DNA of 64,000 nt from a virus (taxonomy: Duplodnaviria > Caudoviricetes), in IMG/VR virus record IMGVR_UViG_3300001531_000060, positions 1 to 64,000 of that record. One strand, 5' to 3'. Below are positions 19,226-56,036 of the stretch, in pieces; the stretch's first letter is position 1; every line of letters begins with the position of its first letter. The notes under the pieces were generated by a model. That model saw only the letters and a list, made by a program, of their open reading frames with translations. It was not told the origin of the DNA and did not search any database. A program made the position numbers and the translations under genes.

Positions 19226-20079
19226 CAAAGGTAATTTATATGAAATTATTTAGTAATTATGTTAGATCACATAAAAGATGCGAATTAAAAATTTTAGCAA
19301 AGTATTACTTAACACAAGAAGTTAAAGATGTTCTAAGTAAATATAATTTAACTTTGTATGAACTTTGTTATAGGATAAAGTATAATATTTCTTTAGATAA
19401 AATATTTGTATGTAAATATTGTGGTAAACCTACGCATTTTTTAGGTATGAAGGGTTACTCTAAAGCATGTAGTGTTAAGTGTGAATTAGTTAATAGAAAT
19501 AAGTCTCAAGAACATAAAGATAAAAAGAAACAAACTTGTTTAAAAAGATTTGGTGAAAGTAATTATGCAAAGACTCAAAAGTTTAAGGAGTTTATAAAAG
19601 ATCATATTAATGAAATACAAGTGAAGTCTTATAACACAAAAAAGAAGAATAATTCATTTCATACTTCAAAAGATGAAAATGAAGCATATGATTTACTTTT
19701 AACTAAATTTACTAAAGATGATATTATTAGGCAATATAAATCAGAAGTCTATCCCTTCGTCTGCGATTTTTATATTAAATCTCTAGACTTATATATAGAG
19801 TATAATGGGACTTGGACTCACGGCTATGATATAAATGGTAAATGTTTAGGTAGTTTTGATGAAAATAATTTAGAACATATTAAGTTATTAGAATTTTGGG
19901 AGAATAAATCTAAAGAAGTAAATTTTAAAAAGAAAGTTAAAACATATTATAAAAATGCAATTTATACCTGGACTGTATTAGATGTTAAGAAATTAGAAAC
20001 GTTTAGAAAGAATAACTTAAATTATAAAATATTTTGGAATTTAGAAGAAGTTAAAAATTGGATAGATAATCTTGTATAA
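19216..20079 (+). CDS. putative homing endonuclease, Vsr/DUF559-like PD-(D/E)xK domain
   Basis: CKYC..C..C Zn motif; CDFYIKSLDLYIEYNGTWTHG; paralogue of 37598-38548. Confidence 0.7.
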   Translation: MYLTKVIYMKLFSNYVRSHKRCELKILAKYYLTQEVKDVLSKYNLTLYELCYRIKYNISLDKIFVCKYCGKPTHFLGMKGYSKACSVKCELVNRNKSQEHKDKKKQTCLKRFGESNYAKTQKFKEFIKDHINEIQVKSYNTKKKNNSFHTSKDENEAYDLLLTKFTKDDIIRQYKSEVYPFVCDFYIKSLDLYIEYNGTWTHGYDINGKCLGSFDENNLEHIKLLEFWENKSKEVNFKKKVKTYYKNAIYTWTVLDVKKLETFRKNNLNYKIFWNLEEVKNWIDNLV

Positions 20080-36822: not shown

Positions 36823-37509
36823 ATGGCATCACATATATTTCAATATCCAGCTGATGTTTTAGAAGCATTGAACCAGAAGATTGATAGTGGAGCATCAGTT
36901 CGTGTTATACAACAATTCATAAAAGATAATTATAGTAACGTGGTAACAGTACCATCGTTAGATGCAATATCTTTGTATAGAAAACAATATCAATCAAAGA
37001 ATACTGCAATTACTTTACAAACAAATAAGACCGAAATAAGTAGAGAGTTTAATGAGGGATTAACAGAACTTGATAGATTACTTACACAAATTAAAGGAAG
37101 ACAAGAACTTAACTATAGTAATGTAAAGGTTTTGCAAGGTTTAATGGGTAAGTGCTTATTGAGGGAGTCCGCATTAGAACATCAACAGGCGAGTAATAGA
37201 GTTCCTGATATGATGGTTGAAAAACAAATACTTGCTTACATATCTGAAGCTAGAAACTATGTTAAAACAATTGTACAACTTACAGCAGATTTAGCGTCAC
37301 AGCAGGCTAAACTCGATGAGCTTGTAAAAAAAGAAACTAAGTTTTTATTACAAACTGTTTCTAATATTGTTTTACAAATCTGTCCACAACATTACGATCA
37401 ATTTACTAAACTATTTAAACAAGCATTAATAAATGAATCTAGTAATCTAAATATGTTAGTATCACAAGAAGAAGCTTCTGAAAATGAAAAAGAGTTAAAA
37501 AATTTTTAA
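36823..37509 (+). CDS. helical protein, possible terminase small subunit
   Basis: HTH-like N-terminus, all-helical; nearest non-HEG gene upstream of TerL (positional inference). Confidence 0.35.
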   Translation: MASHIFQYPADVLEALNQKIDSGASVRVIQQFIKDNYSNVVTVPSLDAISLYRKQYQSKNTAITLQTNKTEISREFNEGLTELDRLLTQIKGRQELNYSNVKVLQGLMGKCLLRESALEHQQASNRVPDMMVEKQILAYISEARNYVKTIVQLTADLASQQAKLDELVKKETKFLLQTVSNIVLQICPQHYDQFTKLFKQALINESSNLNMLVSQEEASENEKELKNF

Positions 37510-37515
37510 TAATTA

Positions 37516-37597
37516 ATGTAGCTAGGTTCGCTACCGAAAAGGATGCAACTCACATCCCTGCTACATATTAAATTTTGAGTAATTACAGGAGTGTAAT
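37516..37597 (+). promoter_or_regulatory. structured RNA leader of homing endonuclease gene (copy 1)
   Basis: Three-way junction covarying with 54837-54924. Confidence 0.65.
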
Positions 37598-38548
37598 ATG
37601 GAAGAATTAATTAAGTATTTAAATGGTCATAAGAATTATAGAGTTTCAACTATAGAGAAAGATTACTTAACTCAAGAAGTTAAAGATACGTTAACTAAGT
37701 ATAGTTTAACTTTAAAAGAGTTGTGTTATAGAATAATACATAATATAGCTTTAGATAAAGTGTTTACTTGTAAATATTGCGGTAAACGTGTTGGGTTGAG
37801 AAAAGGTAAAAATAAATATAAAGAGTTTTGTGACCTTAAATGTTCTGGTGATTATATAAATAATTTAAAAGAAGTTAAAGAAAAAAAGCAACAAACTTTG
37901 ATAGAAAAGTATGGCGTAAATAACCCTACTAAATTAAAAGAGTTTAAAATTAAGATAAAAAATACTTGTTTAAATAAATATGGTGTAGATCATTATTCTA
38001 AAACCCAGAAGTGGAAAGATAGATATAAACAAACTTGTAATAAGCGCTATGGTACAGATTATTATTTACAGTCTCAAGAACGTAAGAATAGAAATGATGA
38101 AATACAAGAGAAGGCTTATAATACAAAGAAAAGCAATAATACATGTAATACATCAAAACAAGAAGAAGCAGTATATAAATTGCTTTTAACTAAATTTCAA
38201 TCAGATGATATTGTAAGATATTATAAATCTAAGCTATACCCTTTTAACTGTGATTTTTATATTAAGAGTTTGGATTTATATATTGAGTATAATGGTAATT
38301 GGACTCATGGCAAGGAACCTTTTGACAAGAATAATTTAAAACATTTAAAACTATTGGAATATTGGAAGATTAAATCTAAAGAAACAAATTTTAAAAAGAA
38401 AACAAAGAACTATTATAGAAGTGCTATTTATACTTGGACAGTAAGAGATGTTAAGAAGTTAGAAACTTTCAAAAAGAATAAGCTTAATTATAAAATATTT
38501 TGGAATATTGAAGAAGTGAAAATTTGGATTAAAGAACAGGAAGTATGA
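37598..38548 (+). CDS. putative homing endonuclease, Vsr/DUF559-like PD-(D/E)xK domain
   Basis: CKYC Zn motif, KYGVxNP/KYGVDHY repeats, CDFYIKSLDLYIEYNGNWTHG. Confidence 0.72.
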   Translation: MEELIKYLNGHKNYRVSTIEKDYLTQEVKDTLTKYSLTLKELCYRIIHNIALDKVFTCKYCGKRVGLRKGKNKYKEFCDLKCSGDYINNLKEVKEKKQQTLIEKYGVNNPTKLKEFKIKIKNTCLNKYGVDHYSKTQKWKDRYKQTCNKRYGTDYYLQSQERKNRNDEIQEKAYNTKKSNNTCNTSKQEEAVYKLLLTKFQSDDIVRYYKSKLYPFNCDFYIKSLDLYIEYNGNWTHGKEPFDKNNLKHLKLLEYWKIKSKETNFKKKTKNYYRSAIYTWTVRDVKKLETFKKNKLNYKIFWNIEEVKIWIKEQEV

Positions 38549-38549
38549 T

Positions 38550-41423
38550 ATGACAGATAGAAGTTCCGCATCAATTAGACAACAGTTGTGTGAATCTGCA
38601 CTTGGTGATATAGATAAAATTTTTAAAACAGATAATAAAGTATGGAATGAAGATCCAATTTCGTTCAGGGACTTCATAATTTCGAAAGATCACATGAATT
38701 TTGTTCCGTTATCAGAAAGACAGGAAGCTCCGTTTGATTTCTTGTTTGGCAATGATTCAAAAAAGATATTTGATAATGGAAATACTACAGCAGTATTATG
38801 TTGGGGAAAAGGATGTGTTTCAGCAGAAACAGTTTTAGAAGATGCTTTGACTCATGAAAAGTATACTGTTGGTGATCTTTATAAGAATCAAAAAAGTATT
38901 TTTGTTAATTGCTATGATGAGAATACTAAAAGGTCTACTATAGAGGTTGCTTCAGTTCCATGGATTTCTGGTAATGGCGAAATTTATAAAGTTGAAACTG
39001 AGAGTGGCAAAACTATAAATGTTTATAAATTTCATAAGTTTTTAACTAGAAATGGTTGGAAAAGATTATCTGAATTGAGTGTAGGTGACGAGATATTAGA
39101 TGATAATATTGATATAGAAACATCTAATATTATAAGTAATGTAATTAATGAGTTTAAAGAAACGCACAAAACATATACAGAAGTTGAAGTAAAGACCTAT
39201 TTACTTGAAAGATTTTCTTGGAAAAAGAAATCAAAAGAAGAGAAACTTAGAAATAAACTAATATATTATAAAAGTTTATATGGTATAATGGGTGAAGATT
39301 GGAGAAGCAAAAAATTTGGTTCACAGAAAGAAAAGCATCCTTTGTGGGGTACATATCAATCTGAAGAATTAAAGAAAAGAAATAGTGAATCAAATAAGAT
39401 TTCTATTAGGAAATTGTATGCAAGTGAACGTGGTGAAGAAGTAAAAAGAAAAATATCTTTAAAAACAAAAGGTGAGTTAAATCCTATGTACGGTAAGCCA
39501 GCACCTTTTGGTAGTGGGAAATGTGATTATTTTAAATTCAAAAATAATAAAGGTGAAGAATTTTATATACAAGGTACATGGGAATTAAAGTTTGCAGAAT
39601 TTTTAAATGATAAGAACATTAATTGGGAAAAGAATTTTGATAGATTTAATTATATTGCAAAAGATGGAAGTGAGAGAACTTATTGTCCAGATTTTAAATT
39701 GTTTTTTGAACATAAAAGTATTTATGTAGAGATAAAAGGTTTAGAAGACGAGAATGTTAATATAAAGTTACAGGCTGTAAGAGATGCTGGAAAAGAAATT
39801 ATAATAATTCGCCAGGATACATTTAGACAATACTATAAGAATTATGAAACACCTGAATTGAAATTTGAAAAAATAAAAGCAATTACTTATTTACGTAACG
39901 ATAATTATTATGATTTAGAAGTTGCTAAGTATCACAACTATTTAGCTCATGGGTTATATAATCATAATTCAGGTAAAGATACAATAACATCTTTATTGAT
40001 GTGCTATGTTGTCTATGTACTACTTTGTTTAAGGTCTCCACAGAAGTTTCTTAATTTACCTGAAGGTGAAGCTATAGACTTGCTTAATGTGGCAGTTAAT
40101 GCACAACAAGCCTCAGGTGTTTTCTTTGAGAAGTTTAAACAAAGATTAATACGTTGGCAATGGTTAAGAGATAAATATCCGGTTAAGTTTTCCGGTTCAT
40201 TTCTTGGACAGGCAAGAATAGATGATATATTAAATACAGTTACAATAACGCAAAACGCAGCTATATTTCCAAATAATATAAGAGCTATTTCAGGACATTC
40301 AGGAGCTAATTCACAGGAAGGTAAGAATATATTATTTTTTGTATGTGATGAGATTGCAGGCTTTGATGAAACTCCAGCTACAAATAAAGGTATAACAATT
40401 TTTAACATGATGAAATCTTCTGCGATTTCTCGTTTTGGAAACAGATATAAAGGTGTAGCATTAAGCTTTTCCAGATATGAAGGTGATGCAATACTTAGAT
40501 TATATGATCAAGGACAATCTGAGTTACATTGGTTTTGTGATAAAGCCTGTACATGGGAAGTAAAACCTGCACATTGTTTTAAAGATTATCCTCAGAAGTA
40601 TTTTGAGTTTCAAGGACACAAGATTCCGTTGGAATATCAATCTGAGTTTAAAGCAGATCCGGAAAATGCTAAAACAAAATATATGTGTTTACCATCTTCT
40701 ATATCAAGTGTGTTTATTGAGAAGCCTGAAAAGATTAGAGCTTGTATAGATCCAAATAGATTACCATTAGTTGATACACAAGATTATGAAGAAGATGGTT
40801 ATGTTAAGAAATTAATTACCAATTATAATATAAGTAGAACAGATATAGATTATACAATAACAATCGATTTAGGATTAAGGAGTGACTCTGCAGCGTTATC
40901 AATATTTCATACAGAGTCCACAGCTACTGGATTAAAAGCAATACAAGATTTAATGATATCTTGGGTGCCTAATCCAGAAAAGAAGTTAGAAGTTTCAATG
41001 CATAATGTGAAACAGTTTTTGGTTGATATAAGTAAGCATATAAATATAAATAGAGTTTATTTTGACCAATGGAACAGTGCTTTACTTATTGAACAGTTAA
41101 ATGAGTTGCATATACCTTCTGAAGAATATAGGCTCAATTTTGCAGATTATAAACATGCAAAAGAAATGATGTATGAAGGTAGAGTATCTTTGCAGCCTAG
41201 TGAGAGACTTCAGGAAGAGTTTAGAAGACTGATATTAACTAGATCAAAACGTGTAGATCACCCAGCAGATTTCCATAATGATAACTGTGATACAGTTGTA
41301 GGTGCAATAAAGATTTTACTTACAAAGAAAGCATTGAATAGCAATATAAATATGGAAGGTGGAATTTATATACAGAATAACTTAAGTTCAATAGGTGGAA
41401 CAATTATTGGACAACAGGAGTAA
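38550..41423 (+). CDS. terL: terminase large subunit (intein-containing)
   Basis: Spliced P-loop CWGKG|SGKD, Walker B FVCDE, nuclease TIDLG..SD, YFDQW, DHP..HND.CD. Confidence 0.9.
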   Translation: MTDRSSASIRQQLCESALGDIDKIFKTDNKVWNEDPISFRDFIISKDHMNFVPLSERQEAPFDFLFGNDSKKIFDNGNTTAVLCWGKGCVSAETVLEDALTHEKYTVGDLYKNQKSIFVNCYDENTKRSTIEVASVPWISGNGEIYKVETESGKTINVYKFHKFLTRNGWKRLSELSVGDEILDDNIDIETSNIISNVINEFKETHKTYTEVEVKTYLLERFSWKKKSKEEKLRNKLIYYKSLYGIMGEDWRSKKFGSQKEKHPLWGTYQSEELKKRNSESNKISIRKLYASERGEEVKRKISLKTKGELNPMYGKPAPFGSGKCDYFKFKNNKGEEFYIQGTWELKFAEFLNDKNINWEKNFDRFNYIAKDGSERTYCPDFKLFFEHKSIYVEIKGLEDENVNIKLQAVRDAGKEIIIIRQDTFRQYYKNYETPELKFEKIKAITYLRNDNYYDLEVAKYHNYLAHGLYNHNSGKDTITSLLMCYVVYVLLCLRSPQKFLNLPEGEAIDLLNVAVNAQQASGVFFEKFKQRLIRWQWLRDKYPVKFSGSFLGQARIDDILNTVTITQNAAIFPNNIRAISGHSGANSQEGKNILFFVCDEIAGFDETPATNKGITIFNMMKSSAISRFGNRYKGVALSFSRYEGDAILRLYDQGQSELHWFCDKACTWEVKPAHCFKDYPQKYFEFQGHKIPLEYQSEFKADPENAKTKYMCLPSSISSVFIEKPEKIRACIDPNRLPLVDTQDYEEDGYVKKLITNYNISRTDIDYTITIDLGLRSDSAALSIFHTESTATGLKAIQDLMISWVPNPEKKLEVSMHNVKQFLVDISKHININRVYFDQWNSALLIEQLNELHIPSEEYRLNFADYKHAKEMMYEGRVSLQPSERLQEEFRRLILTRSKRVDHPADFHNDNCDTVVGAIKILLTKKALNSNINMEGGIYIQNNLSSIGGTIIGQQE
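38814..39968 (+). mobile_element. intein (385 aa) in the TerL Walker A
   Basis: Starts CVSAET, block B HKFLT, ends YDLEV..HNYLAHGLYNHN followed by Ser. Confidence 0.9.
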
Positions 41424-48460: not shown

Positions 48461-48560
48461 ATCATTATCAGGTAGCATTAACCTAGCTAGTTAATGAGAT
48501 AATAGTATACCTTGAAATACTAAGCTGATAATGATATAATATCTTTCAAGGAGATAATTA
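48461..48560 (+). promoter_or_regulatory. structured leader upstream of endonuclease gene
   Basis: ATCATTATCAG/CTGATAATGAT closing stem with two inner hairpins. Confidence 0.55.
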
Positions 48561-50216
48561 ATGCAAAGAGATGATTATACAAAAGAAATATTAATAAATA
48601 TTATAAAAGATTTGAAACAGAGAAATTTAGAATTTGATTTACAAGCTAAAGTTTTTGGGTTTTCTAAAAAGAATAAGTTAATTTATAAGCAAGTTAATAG
48701 TCAATATCCAAATGCATTTATTAATGTTTCTGAATTGCATAAAGCATTAAATTGTGATATGGATGAATTATTTTGTAAGAATTGTGGTAAACGCGTAACG
48801 TTTATTAGTGAGAAACGATCTAGACAATTTTGTTCAGTATCATGCAAGTCAAAATATATGTTAAAGACAGGTAAAGTTGTTAATCCATCTTTACGTTCAG
48901 AATGTGTAGCTAAGAGAAATAGAACATTTATAGATAAATTTGGTTGCAATCCTTCACAATTATTAGAAATTAAAAATAAAAAAGAAGCAACATGTTTTAA
49001 ACATTTTGGTGTGAAGTTTCCAGGTCAAGTTGAAAGTGGGAAATTAAAGTCTAAACAAACTTGTCTAGAAAAATATGGTGTAGAATATTACAATCAGTCA
49101 GAAATTGCTAAGGAAAAACAAAGACAATTTAATTTACTGAAGTTTGGTGTTGAAAATATGAATCAAGTGCACATTAAGAACTATAATAATTTGCATGAGG
49201 ATTATGTTAGAAGCAATTTCATAAAAGATAATAAATTTTTAATACAAGAATTTCAAGCTTACTTTAATCTACAATATAAGGCAGCGTCACAATATAAGAA
49301 ACAGTTTAATATACAAGAACAAAATAAATTAGATGTACAAAAAACACAGCAAGAGCTATACAGGTTTATAAAATCTTTAAATATAAGTAAAGTTAACTAT
49401 AATGATAGAAGTGTTTTAAATGGTAAAGAATTGGATATTTACATACCAGATAAGAAATTAGCTATAGAGTTTGATGGATTAATGTTTCATTCATTTGGTA
49501 AGTCAAAGCATACAATATTTAATAACTTTATTGAAGAAGATCGGAATATACATTTATCTAAAACTAATGTTTGTCAAGAAAAAGGAATACAATTACTCCA
49601 TATATTTGAAAACGAATGGTTAACTAAAAAAGACATATGGAAGTCTGTGATTAAAAATAAACTTGGTTTGATTGACAAAAAAATATATGCAAGAAAATGT
49701 GAAATAAAGAAAGTTCAGAATTCAGAAAAGGAGACCTTCTTAAATACAAATCATTTACAAGGTAGCTGTCAATCAAGTATAGATATAGGTTTGTATTACA
49801 ATAATGAATTAGTATCGTTAATGACTTTCGGTAAGTCAAGATTCAATAAAAAATATAAATATGAATTACTTAGATTTTGTAATAAATTAGATATAATTGT
49901 AGTTGGTGGAGCTTCCAAGTTATTAAGCTACTTCAGAAAACATTATAACGGTAATATTATAAGTTACGCAAATAGACGTTGGAGTAACGGTGACTTATAC
50001 CAAAAATTAGGATTTAGTTTTGTAGAAGTGTCGGAGCCAAATTACTTCTATTTTAATCTTAAAGATAGAGTACTTATAAGTCGTATACAGTTTCAAAAAC
50101 ATAAATTACATAAAAAATTAAGTACATTTAATTCTAGCCTTTCAGAAACACAAAATATGTACAATAATGGTTATCGTAAGATTTATGATTGTGGTAATTA
50201 TACATTTAGTTTGTAG
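48561..50216 (+). CDS. putative homing endonuclease (Hef-like PD-(D/E)xK core with C-terminal accessory domain)
   Basis: KYGVE/KFGVE repeats, ELDIYIPDKKLAIEFDG, YARKC...NHLQG...VVGGASKLL...YQKLGF. Confidence 0.72.
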   Translation: MQRDDYTKEILINIIKDLKQRNLEFDLQAKVFGFSKKNKLIYKQVNSQYPNAFINVSELHKALNCDMDELFCKNCGKRVTFISEKRSRQFCSVSCKSKYMLKTGKVVNPSLRSECVAKRNRTFIDKFGCNPSQLLEIKNKKEATCFKHFGVKFPGQVESGKLKSKQTCLEKYGVEYYNQSEIAKEKQRQFNLLKFGVENMNQVHIKNYNNLHEDYVRSNFIKDNKFLIQEFQAYFNLQYKAASQYKKQFNIQEQNKLDVQKTQQELYRFIKSLNISKVNYNDRSVLNGKELDIYIPDKKLAIEFDGLMFHSFGKSKHTIFNNFIEEDRNIHLSKTNVCQEKGIQLLHIFENEWLTKKDIWKSVIKNKLGLIDKKIYARKCEIKKVQNSEKETFLNTNHLQGSCQSSIDIGLYYNNELVSLMTFGKSRFNKKYKYELLRFCNKLDIIVVGGASKLLSYFRKHYNGNIISYANRRWSNGDLYQKLGFSFVEVSEPNYFYFNLKDRVLISRIQFQKHKLHKKLSTFNSSLSETQNMYNNGYRKIYDCGNYTFSL

Positions 50217-54779: not shown

Positions 54780-54836
54780 TTATTGTTGATAAATGACAAC
54801 ACAGCTATCACCTAATTTCACATTGTAGTTTAGATA

Positions 54837-54924
54837 ATAGTGGCTAGGGTAGCTCCCGAAAAAACAGCAACTCACTGTTCTGCCACTATAAATTATATGA
54901 GTAATATTTTACAGGAGTGTAAAA
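54837..54924 (+). promoter_or_regulatory. structured RNA leader of homing endonuclease gene (copy 2)
   Basis: Three-way junction covarying with 37516-37597. Confidence 0.65.
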
Positions 54925-55575
54925 ATGACTAAATTAAATTTAGAAGTAGGACAAAAGTTTGGAAGGTGGACAGTTTTAGAAATTTCAAAGAAAATAAAAG
55001 GTCATGGCAATATTTTAGTAAGATGTAAATGTGATTGTGGTACAATAAAAGAAATTAGTCACTACACATTATTAAACGGTAAATCTGTTAGTTGCGGTTG
55101 TTTACGAAAAGAATTGTTAAGTAATAGAGAAAACGCTCACCATAAAACAAATACAAAGCTTTATCAAATTCATGCAGCAATGAAAGCTCGTTGTTTTAGT
55201 AAAAATCATAAAAATTATAAACAATATGGTGGTCGTGGGATAACAGTTTGTGATGAATGGAAAAATGACTTCGTGGCTTTCTATAATTGGGCAATGAGCA
55301 ATGGTTATAAGGAAGGTCTTACAATAGACAGAATAGATGTGAATGGTAATTACGAGCCAAATAATTGTAGATGGGTTACTAGAAAAGAGCAGGCAAATAA
55401 TACTAGAAAAAATTGTTTTATTGAATATAATAATGAAAGACATACTATTGCTGAATGGTGTGATATTTTAGGTATAACATACAGCAAACTATTTAGCAGA
55501 CTACGTAAAGGTCTTCCTCTAGATAAATGTTTTTACCCTGGTAAAATATCAAATAATGGAATAGATTTACTATGA
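54925..55575 (+). CDS. HNH homing endonuclease
   Basis: CKCDCG, YGGRGITVCDEW, LTIDRIDVNGNYEPNNCRW..EQANN. Confidence 0.9.
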   Translation: MTKLNLEVGQKFGRWTVLEISKKIKGHGNILVRCKCDCGTIKEISHYTLLNGKSVSCGCLRKELLSNRENAHHKTNTKLYQIHAAMKARCFSKNHKNYKQYGGRGITVCDEWKNDFVAFYNWAMSNGYKEGLTIDRIDVNGNYEPNNCRWVTRKEQANNTRKNCFIEYNNERHTIAEWCDILGITYSKLFSRLRKGLPLDKCFYPGKISNNGIDLL

Positions 55576-56036
55576 TATATTTAGCACCTTCGTTCACTCT
55601 CGATGAGCTATTAACTACTTCACATAAGGATTTACTTCCTAAACAAAATGAGGAAGTGAAGCCTTATGTGAATAACTTATATATACTTGCCAATTATATA
55701 CTTCAACCAATCCGTAATTACTATAAAGTACCTATAACAGTTACAAGTGGATTCAGAGGAAAAGCATTAAATGAAAGAGTTGGTGGAAATAAAACCAGTC
55801 AACATTGTTTAGGTGAAGCAGTAGACTTTATAGTTAAAGGCAAGACAGTTGATGAAGTATTTGAAGATATTAGAACAGGTAAGATTGATATTTGTTATAA
55901 ACAGCTGATTAAGGAAAAAATATCTGGAAAGTTTTGGATTCATATAGGGATGGTCAAGATACCCTTTAAACCTAAAGATAAGTATTTGCAGAAGTTAACT
56001 ACAACTGATGGTAAAAAATATACAGAAGTAAAATAG
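55572..56036 (+). CDS. endolysin, peptidase M15A-like
   Basis: TSGFR..LN..VGG..SQH..GEAVDF...WIHI. Confidence 0.85.
   Translation: MIYLAPSFTLDELLTTSHKDLLPKQNEEVKPYVNNLYILANYILQPIRNYYKVPITVTSGFRGKALNERVGGNKTSQHCLGEAVDFIVKGKTVDEVFEDIRTGKIDICYKQLIKEKISGKFWIHIGMVKIPFKPKDKYLQKLTTTDGKKYTEVK

Follow-up and report, generated by a model that had tools for sequence, protein, structure and literature searches.

Two members of the int-alpA RNA family precede homing-endonuclease genes within cassettes of an uncultured phage

The two leaders and their genes

The window, which is the whole stretch of DNA analysed (64,000 nucleotides; positions 1 to 64,000 of the IMG/VR record IMGVR_UViG_3300001531_000060, Caudoviricetes), contains two structured RNA leaders, each located immediately upstream of a homing-endonuclease gene (HEG). 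Copy A spans positions 37516-37597 and copy B spans positions 54837-54924. The features at the two loci are as follows.

37507-37509, + strand: TAA that terminates the upstream gene (36823-37509); P1 of copy A follows after 6 nt
37516-37566, + strand: three-way junction of copy A (37.3 bits with RF02996, 80.5 bits with our own model; covariation; MFE fold)
37516-37522 with 37560-37566, + strand: P1 of copy A; joints J12 and J31 of this copy are UA and CU
37525-37527 with 37533-37535, + strand: P2 of copy A, loop UCGCU
37536-37540, + strand: J23 of copy A, GAAAA
37541-37545 with 37553-37557, + strand: P3 of copy A, loop CAACUCA at 37546-37552
37576-37580, + strand: site 1 (decoy) of copy A, UGAGU, pseudoknot partner of ACUCA in the P3 loop
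37582-37597, + strand: P4 hairpin of copy A, AUUACA-GGAG-UGUAAU, with the SD as tetraloop and AUG directly after it at 37598
37598-38548, + strand: homing-endonuclease gene A, 316 aa (Pfam DUF7487, phrog_3339)
54837-54889, + strand: three-way junction of copy B (42.3 bits with RF02996, 82.3 bits with our own model)
54837-54844 with 54882-54889, + strand: P1 of copy B
54847-54849 with 54855-54857, + strand: P2 of copy B, loop UAGCU
54858-54862, + strand: J23 of copy B, GAAAA
54863-54867 with 54875-54879, + strand: P3 of copy B, loop CAACUCA at 54868-54874, the same as in copy A
54898-54902, + strand: site 1 (decoy) of copy B, UGAGU
54907-54924, + strand: P4 hairpin of copy B, UUUUACA-GGAG-UGUAAAA, with AUG at 54925
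54925-55575, + strand: HNH homing-endonuclease gene B, 216 aa (phrog_374/3377)

The elements are arranged in the same order in both copies: a stop codon 6-8 nt upstream, the junction, the decoy (9 and 8 nt past P1 in copies A and B, respectively), then, after one to four bases, hairpin P4 and the AUG codon. The conserved joints of the junction are C-UA-GG, CC-GAAAA and CU-G. The P3 loop CAACUCA resembles the 16S anti-SD sequence, and its duplex with the decoy was calculated at about -5.4 kcal/mol in copy A. The shared tail TACAGGAGTGTAA is the core of the fourth hairpin, P4, the 3' strand of which reaches the AUG. The P4 stem is A/U-rich (-3.6 to -4.1 kcal/mol, with about -3.6 kcal/mol in copy A), and the SD sequence GGAG lies unpaired in its loop in both copies. 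This hairpin was absent from an earlier sequence-only reading of the same DNA and is added here.

That reading had described a three-way-junction RNA in both copies, with compensatory changes in P1, P2 and P3, and every stem that it had named was recovered: eight pairs are changed on both sides between copies A and B (three in P1, one in P2 and four in P3), and no shared pair is broken. P1 of copy B has one additional outer pair, the equivalent position being A·A in copy A. The core pattern matches the window exactly twice, and our own covariance model, run with filters off on the 73-kb record, scored the two copies at 82 and 80 bits and the runner-up at 13.7 bits. Single-sequence folding recovers the same junction with z-scores of only -1.0 and -1.7, so the case for this structure rests on covariation and not on stability. 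When P1-P3 and the pseudoknot were aligned in 14 phage leaders and two leaders of Escherichia coli, 91.6% of the cells were paired, versus 68.3% in shuffles, and double changes were found in 17 of the 20 pairs (slid controls reached 45% at most). The helix formed by the P3 loop and the decoy was paired in 98%, and three of its four pairs have changed on both sides. For P4, compared among 13 leaders, 90.1% were paired (53.5% when shuffled), with double changes in six of seven pairs. The presence of G-U pairs, the fixed orientation and the fixed spacing to the AUG indicate that the element acts as RNA rather than as DNA.

Membership in the int-alpA family

Each copy is a member of the int-alpA RNA family (RF02996), both scores (37.3 bits for copy A and 42.3 bits for copy B) being above the gathering cut-off of 35.8 bits. 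With permissive filters, the matches cover the full model (positions 1-71) in both copies. The sequence-only reading had regarded the RNA as novel unless it matched a described Rfam family, and the claim of novelty is given up here because of these scores. The default-filter Rfam scan of the whole window returned nothing, which was a false negative of the speed filters; since these filters lose AT-rich members, routine annotation will under-report RF02996 in phages.

Alignment to the model consensus places P1, P2 and P3 with the joints UA, GAAAA and CU in both copies, and the pseudoknot between the P3 loop and the 3' tail corresponds to ACUCA:UGAGU in the window. In two E. coli members (L018 and L019) the equivalent pairings are ACCUUA:UAAGGU and GCCUUA:UAAGGC. 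As loop and site differ from those of the window and still match each other, the pseudoknot covaries across the family, and the earlier proposal that the loop ACUCA faces a downstream UGAGU is borne out as a conserved site. The E. coli members share the whole plan, i.e. the junction, the pseudoknot and, ahead of the AUG, a hairpin whose loop contains AAGG.

The adjacency to integrase and alpA genes, from which the family takes its name, was not seen in the window, where late or structural phage genes flank the leaders and nuclease genes stand behind them. In the E. coli islands (L018 3082-4035, L019 3082-3963), int-alpA RNA begins 6-8 nt past the integrase stop and heads a protein of 317 or 293 aa; the alpA-like HTH gene comes only after that protein. 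The E. coli proteins behind the RNA had no family match in Pfam, PHROG, PADLOC or NCBIfam. int-alpA is reportedly among the 224 candidate RNAs described by Weinberg et al. 2017. It is typed as an sRNA in Rfam, and no published function of the family was found; the main text of PMC5737381 does not discuss it.

A profile search of genome records with the Rfam model never returned more than one copy per record and overlooked copy B, being too insensitive for copy counts. Four true members were located in genome bins assigned to Clostridia or Eubacteriales and to rumen 'Alphaproteobacteria' MAGs, although the binning of phage DNA is unreliable. A pattern match in L017 and nine of 13 genome matches were rejected as chance hits lacking the stems. 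Isolated phages gave no match by blastn of the region or by tblastn of a structural protein.

Mobile cassettes and empty sites

Comparison with related phages delimits the inserted units.

37510-38549, + strand: inserted cassette A (leader and HEG); the site is empty in relatives L148-L150
54793-54828, + strand: mini-ORF MTTQLSPNFTL followed by a stop codon, the original endolysin start severed by cassette B
54826-55601, + strand: inserted cassette B (stop codon, leader, HNH gene and 10 recoded endolysin codons); the site is empty in L143-L145

At both loci the inserted unit is RNA plus nuclease gene. In L148-L150 the upstream stop and the downstream ATG are fused as TAA-TA-ATG, and between these two codons the window carries leader A and its nuclease gene. 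In L143-L145 the endolysin gene is uninterrupted and starts with MTTQLSPNFTL(D/E)ELL; in the window a TAG interrupts this start after codon 11, leaving 8 nt to P1 of copy B, and the working endolysin gene restarts as MIYLAPSFTL with recoded codons (55572-55601). A near-identical cassette A is located elsewhere in a related phage (L006), directly after a TTGACA-N7-CATAAT motif, the sequence identity starting about 10 nt before P1. The empty sites and the relocated cassette A indicate that the RNA travels with the nuclease gene. The cassette boundaries, together with the covariation, agree with the earlier proposal of a portable leader that adjoins its gene and is common to unrelated HEGs. The HEG stops abut the starts of downstream essential genes, with TGA-T-ATG after gene A and an overlap of the gene B stop with the new endolysin start (ATGA). 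The gene that follows cassette A (38550-41423, 957 aa) encodes an intein splicing domain with a NUMOD3 motif and is a second selfish element at this locus.

Gene A had been described as encoding a nuclease of PD-(D/E)xK type. A Vsr-like motif, D...IE(Y/F)(N/D)G...H, weakly supports this assignment, but the best fold matches, I-Bth0305I and Vsr, were not significant; the structure model is poor (pLDDT 68, pTM 0.32), and a sequence search against solved structures gave no match. This nuclease domain may be Vsr/EDxHD-like. The window encodes a further two paralogues of nuclease A, at 19240-20079 and 48561-50216. The former is 52% identical to gene A and is located directly after its upstream gene, with AAGG as a simple SD and without a structured leader; thus, the leader is optional for this nuclease family. 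Members of the family (37598-38548, 19240-20079 and one in L016) contain two to several K-x-K-Q-T-C-L-x-K-Y-G repeats before the nuclease domain. The number of repeats varies between paralogues, and they possibly form a modular DNA-binding array.

Relatives: one P3 loop and two downstream partners

Pattern scans of viral contigs identified 13 leaders of the window's subgroup, and a looser pattern added more than 120 others. In all 15 subgroup leaders scanned the gene that follows is nuclease-like, and at least four unrelated nuclease families are represented: phrog_374/3377 HNH, DUF7487/phrog_3339, NUMOD4+HNH_3 or HNH+AP2, and T5orf172. The downstream genes in L006 and L013/L016 are homologues of gene A. 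Among 109 relatives, the downstream genes encode DUF1376 (19), DUF927 (17), HNH types, DUF7487, DUF559, antirepressors, Dam and others, those of DUF1376 and DUF927 being replication genes headed by int-alpA-type leaders. Two earlier suggestions find no support here. The RNA is not specific for toxic nucleases, as the presence of DUF1376, DUF927, antirepressors and Dam demonstrates, and a guide-like or nuclease-bound RNA is not favoured, one leader serving at least four unrelated nuclease families and the window having no excess of target-like sites. The genes upstream of the leaders in the wider set are often small Cro/YdaS/AlpA-like regulators.

Complementarity of the P3 loop was analysed in 109 non-redundant phage leaders with an assigned start codon. 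A Watson-Crick run of at least 6 between the loop and the downstream region was found in 74 of them, versus a mean of 6.9 and a maximum of 15 when loops were permuted among leaders, and a second, non-overlapping complementary site of at least 5 was present in 59 (permuted mean 4.0, maximum 9), although the permutation overstates independence, because the leaders of the set are related to one another and were collected by means of a pattern in which the junction is fixed. Site 1, the decoy, starts at a median of 9 nt past P1. The median distance from the end of site 2 to the start codon is 7 nt. Site 2 and the predicted SD overlap in 59 of 83 leaders, and a local hairpin, present in 70 of the 83, mostly holds site 2 in its loop. 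The decoy duplex is the stronger of the two in 61/83.

Within the window's subgroup (13 leaders), every stem varies but neither the loop nor the decoy does, as would fit a loop tied to a fixed SD. Pairing of the loop with the SD in the window copies involves 3-4 bp (about -5.0 kcal/mol) and requires the opening of P4 and of the closing P3 pair. The sequence-only reading had proposed GAGT at the RBS as the alternative partner of the loop, and such a duplex of 3-4 bp is possible; since a U follows GGAG in just six of these 13 leaders, the fourth pair is not under selection.

Transcriptional setting

A same-strand ORF stops 5-24 nt before the junction in 56 of the 109 leaders, versus 4.4 at random positions, and this tight spacing partly reflects the tight packing of phage genes. 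A search for sigma-70-like promoters upstream gave none above shuffles (16 vs 19.8; 12 vs 12.9), the consensus used being possibly not that of this phage; the sole promoter-like match beside an element is a minimal one (9/12, at 37484-37513). The scan therefore lends no support to a promoter of their own directly upstream of the leaders. The leader interiors contain neither a sigma-70-like site nor the repeated motif of the phage, whose own promoter types may differ.

The repeated motif, TTGACA-N7-CATAWT, lies 1.6 and 0.9 kb upstream of copies A and B, respectively. It is a candidate phage-specific promoter, with seven exact occurrences in the window, and eight within one mismatch versus 2.8 expected. 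The exact occurrences are located as follows.

35919, 41677, 50269, 53953 and 60192, + strand: TTGACA-N7-CATAWT
6201 and 16689, - strand: TTGACA-N7-CATAWT

Both leaders are inside units that start with this motif, and in L006 it stands about 20 nt before the leader.

Possible function of the leaders

To our judgement, there is a slightly better than even chance that the element is a portable leader which works on the mRNA that carries it and governs how the cassette gene is translated within a polycistronic message. From the fold and the family membership, the pair of sites complementary to the P3 loop, the placement of the SD in the loop of a hairpin and the limits of the cassettes, we infer that the leader throttles or switches ribosome access. 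The 30S subunit would have to melt P4 before binding. With the P3 loop on the decoy the RBS would be free, and with the loop on the SD region it would be masked. In this way, the leader might set or gate the nuclease output from the long late transcripts that hold the cassette, and might shield the RBS from whatever sequence surrounds the landing site. Ribosomes terminating just before P1, and thereby opening the junction, are a candidate trigger.

Several observations constrain this scheme. Because the loop-SD pairing is calculated at -5.0 kcal/mol versus -5.4 kcal/mol for the decoy duplex, masking may rarely form in the window copies, and P4 alone may throttle. The predominance of the stronger decoy duplex in the wider set suggests that the RBS-free form is the ground state, in which site 2 would have no obvious purpose. 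Finally, as the HEG stops abut essential gene starts, a full shut-off of translation would be impossible if the downstream genes need coupling.

A broader version, which we regard as possible but doubtful, is that leaders of the int-alpA type serve selfish or accessory cassettes as a universal plug-in gate of translation, operating as a ligand-free switch coupled to termination. The stop located 6-8 nt ahead of P1 would come with the cassette; on completing the host gene, ribosomes would open the junction, and the P3 loop would shift between the decoy and the RBS hairpin. The cassette gene, as well as the essential gene coupled to its stop, would then be translated in step with the upstream gene.

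The conservation of the junction could alternatively point to a riboswitch-like RNA, in which a small molecule or a universal factor of host or phage binds the junction and decides between decoy and RBS pairing. Across a range from E. coli islands to AT-rich rumen phages, all stems drift, yet the joint nucleotides (CUAGG, CCGAAAAG and CCUGC) and the U(A/C)GCU loop of P2 are conserved, and the two alternative partners of the P3 loop resemble an expression platform. A multistem junction with a pseudoknot is also a criterion of Weinberg et al. for biochemically sophisticated RNAs (PMC5737381). We consider this reading unlikely, as nucleases, replication proteins and antirepressors share no common metabolic theme, no protein consistently co-occurs with the leader at the loci examined, Rfam types the family as an sRNA and no ligand is known.

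About as unlikely is a passive insulator or stabiliser, i.e. a compact fold that keeps the RBS apart from the sequence and the ribosomes upstream, or that protects the ends of the mRNA, and so gives a fixed translation level. The SD lies in a hairpin loop in all members examined, an arrangement that resembles the synthetic RiboJ design. Such a role would fit a leader that is the first part of the cassette, 6-8 nt behind a stop codon, and that is found both after an ORF, as in the window, and just after a promoter-like motif, as in L006. However, an insulator needs neither a loop that matches two covarying sites nor joints so strictly conserved.

The leader might also be processed to an antisense RNA similar to C4 of phages P1 and P7 or CI of P4, the excised junction repressing the RBS of matching cassettes. 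C4 has a1/b1 and a2/b2 complementarity and CI has seqA/seqC; here a single loop matches two sites of its own leader. The sRNA typing in Rfam, the presence of E. coli members in islands with icd-like and antirepressor genes, and the loop and SD context shared by both window copies, so that cross-talk is possible, are consistent with such an RNA. Against it, there was no match to C4 (RF01695) at E-values up to 10, and ARAGORN found no tRNA-like gene. Sites complementary to the loop (TGAGTTG) are not in excess in the window (12 vs 8 expected, two of the 12 being the loops themselves), and the junction is always directly before a gene. Nor is there a terminator or U-tract that would release a small RNA: at least six U in the 9 nt after P1 were found in only 10 of the 109 leaders, so a U-tract is not a feature of the family (34% U in these 9 nt family-wide), and no + strand terminator was predicted at either copy. 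An antisense RNA is therefore improbable to a marked degree.

A terminator or attenuator, or a site of recombination or homing at the DNA level, is scarcely credible, since the G+C-rich P1 followed by UUUAUUUUU in E. coli members has no counterpart in a general U-tract or in the window copies, G-U pairs and the fixed link to SD and AUG favour RNA read by ribosomes, and the target sites of HEGs are the flanks and not the leader. The terminator reading was rejected on the lack of a general U-tract and of a predicted + strand terminator.

If control of translation by the leader is true, it would explain how homing-endonuclease genes and further add-on genes land between essential phage genes without upsetting expression, and the leader would be a compact natural part for context-independent translation control.

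Comparison with known systems

A second type of three-way-junction leader (48461-48535) heads the nuclease gene 48561-50216, which is paralogous to gene A. In this leader P1 comprises 11 bp, the joints are GUAGCA, UGAGAUAA and AG, and the P2 loop is CUAGCUA; its P3 loop, ACCUUGAA, is complementary to UUCAAGG at the SD, which lies in the following hairpin. The z-score of its fold is -3.0. Its relatives L152 and L153 have compensatory stems, and L153 also has a matching change of loop and SD; neither a downstream site nor an ORF is present in L152. This leader is similar to the int-alpA copies in its three-way junction, in UAGCU of the P2 loop and in a P3 loop that faces the SD region, but its joints are different and it has no decoy site. 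It was not detected by RF02996 or by our own covariance model.

RBS-sequestering hairpins are used by HEGs of T4-type phages (I-TevI, I-TevII, I-TevIII, segB and mobE of Aeh1; Edgell et al. 2010, PMC2988022), which confirms the earlier remark that these systems rely on simpler structures that hide the RBS. In both cases, an RNA structure is located at the RBS of a nuclease gene on long polycistronic transcripts, where it presumably serves to limit or to time the production of nuclease. Each T4 hairpin consists of one stable stem in which the SD is paired, and a late promoter located within that stem allows it to be bypassed. In contrast, the leaders of the window present the SD in the loop of a weak hairpin, have a conserved junction and a pseudoknot upstream, and gave no internal match to a sigma-70-like promoter or to the repeated motif of the phage; GGAG is not paired inside a stable stem in either copy.

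C4 and CI are phage RNAs that derive from the leader of the operon they control and have loops complementary to two sites, one of them at the RBS. C4 pairs through two loops and, once cut by RNase P, targets other transcripts. The window leaders have a single varying loop, both sites are downstream of it and there is no sign of processing; they also do not match RF01695 in sequence or structure. The C4 antisense RNA family (RF01695) is listed in PMC2864571.

The closest system is int-alpA itself, with the same three-way junction, joints and pseudoknot to the 3' tail, and the hairpin with the SD in its loop is also present in the E. coli members that were retrieved. The family is named for integrase/alpA islands of Proteobacteria, whereas the copies described here belong to late-gene operons and homing-endonuclease cassettes of an uncultured phage with 28-30% G+C. 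Unlike the E. coli members, they have ACUCA/UGAGU as P3 loop and decoy instead of CCUUA/UAAGG, and their P4 loop consists of merely four bases, GGAG. The two copies alone add little; together with about 120 relatives, they give int-alpA a setting, as the first part of mobile gene cassettes within phage operons, an anatomy, consisting of the junction, the pseudoknot to the decoy and the RBS hairpin, and a testable mechanism, in which one loop has two competing partners. The family is said to have been an orphan since 2017. Thus, the two leaders are further members of a known orphan family, and what they contribute is the evidence for cassettes, the fuller anatomy and a mechanism that can be tested.
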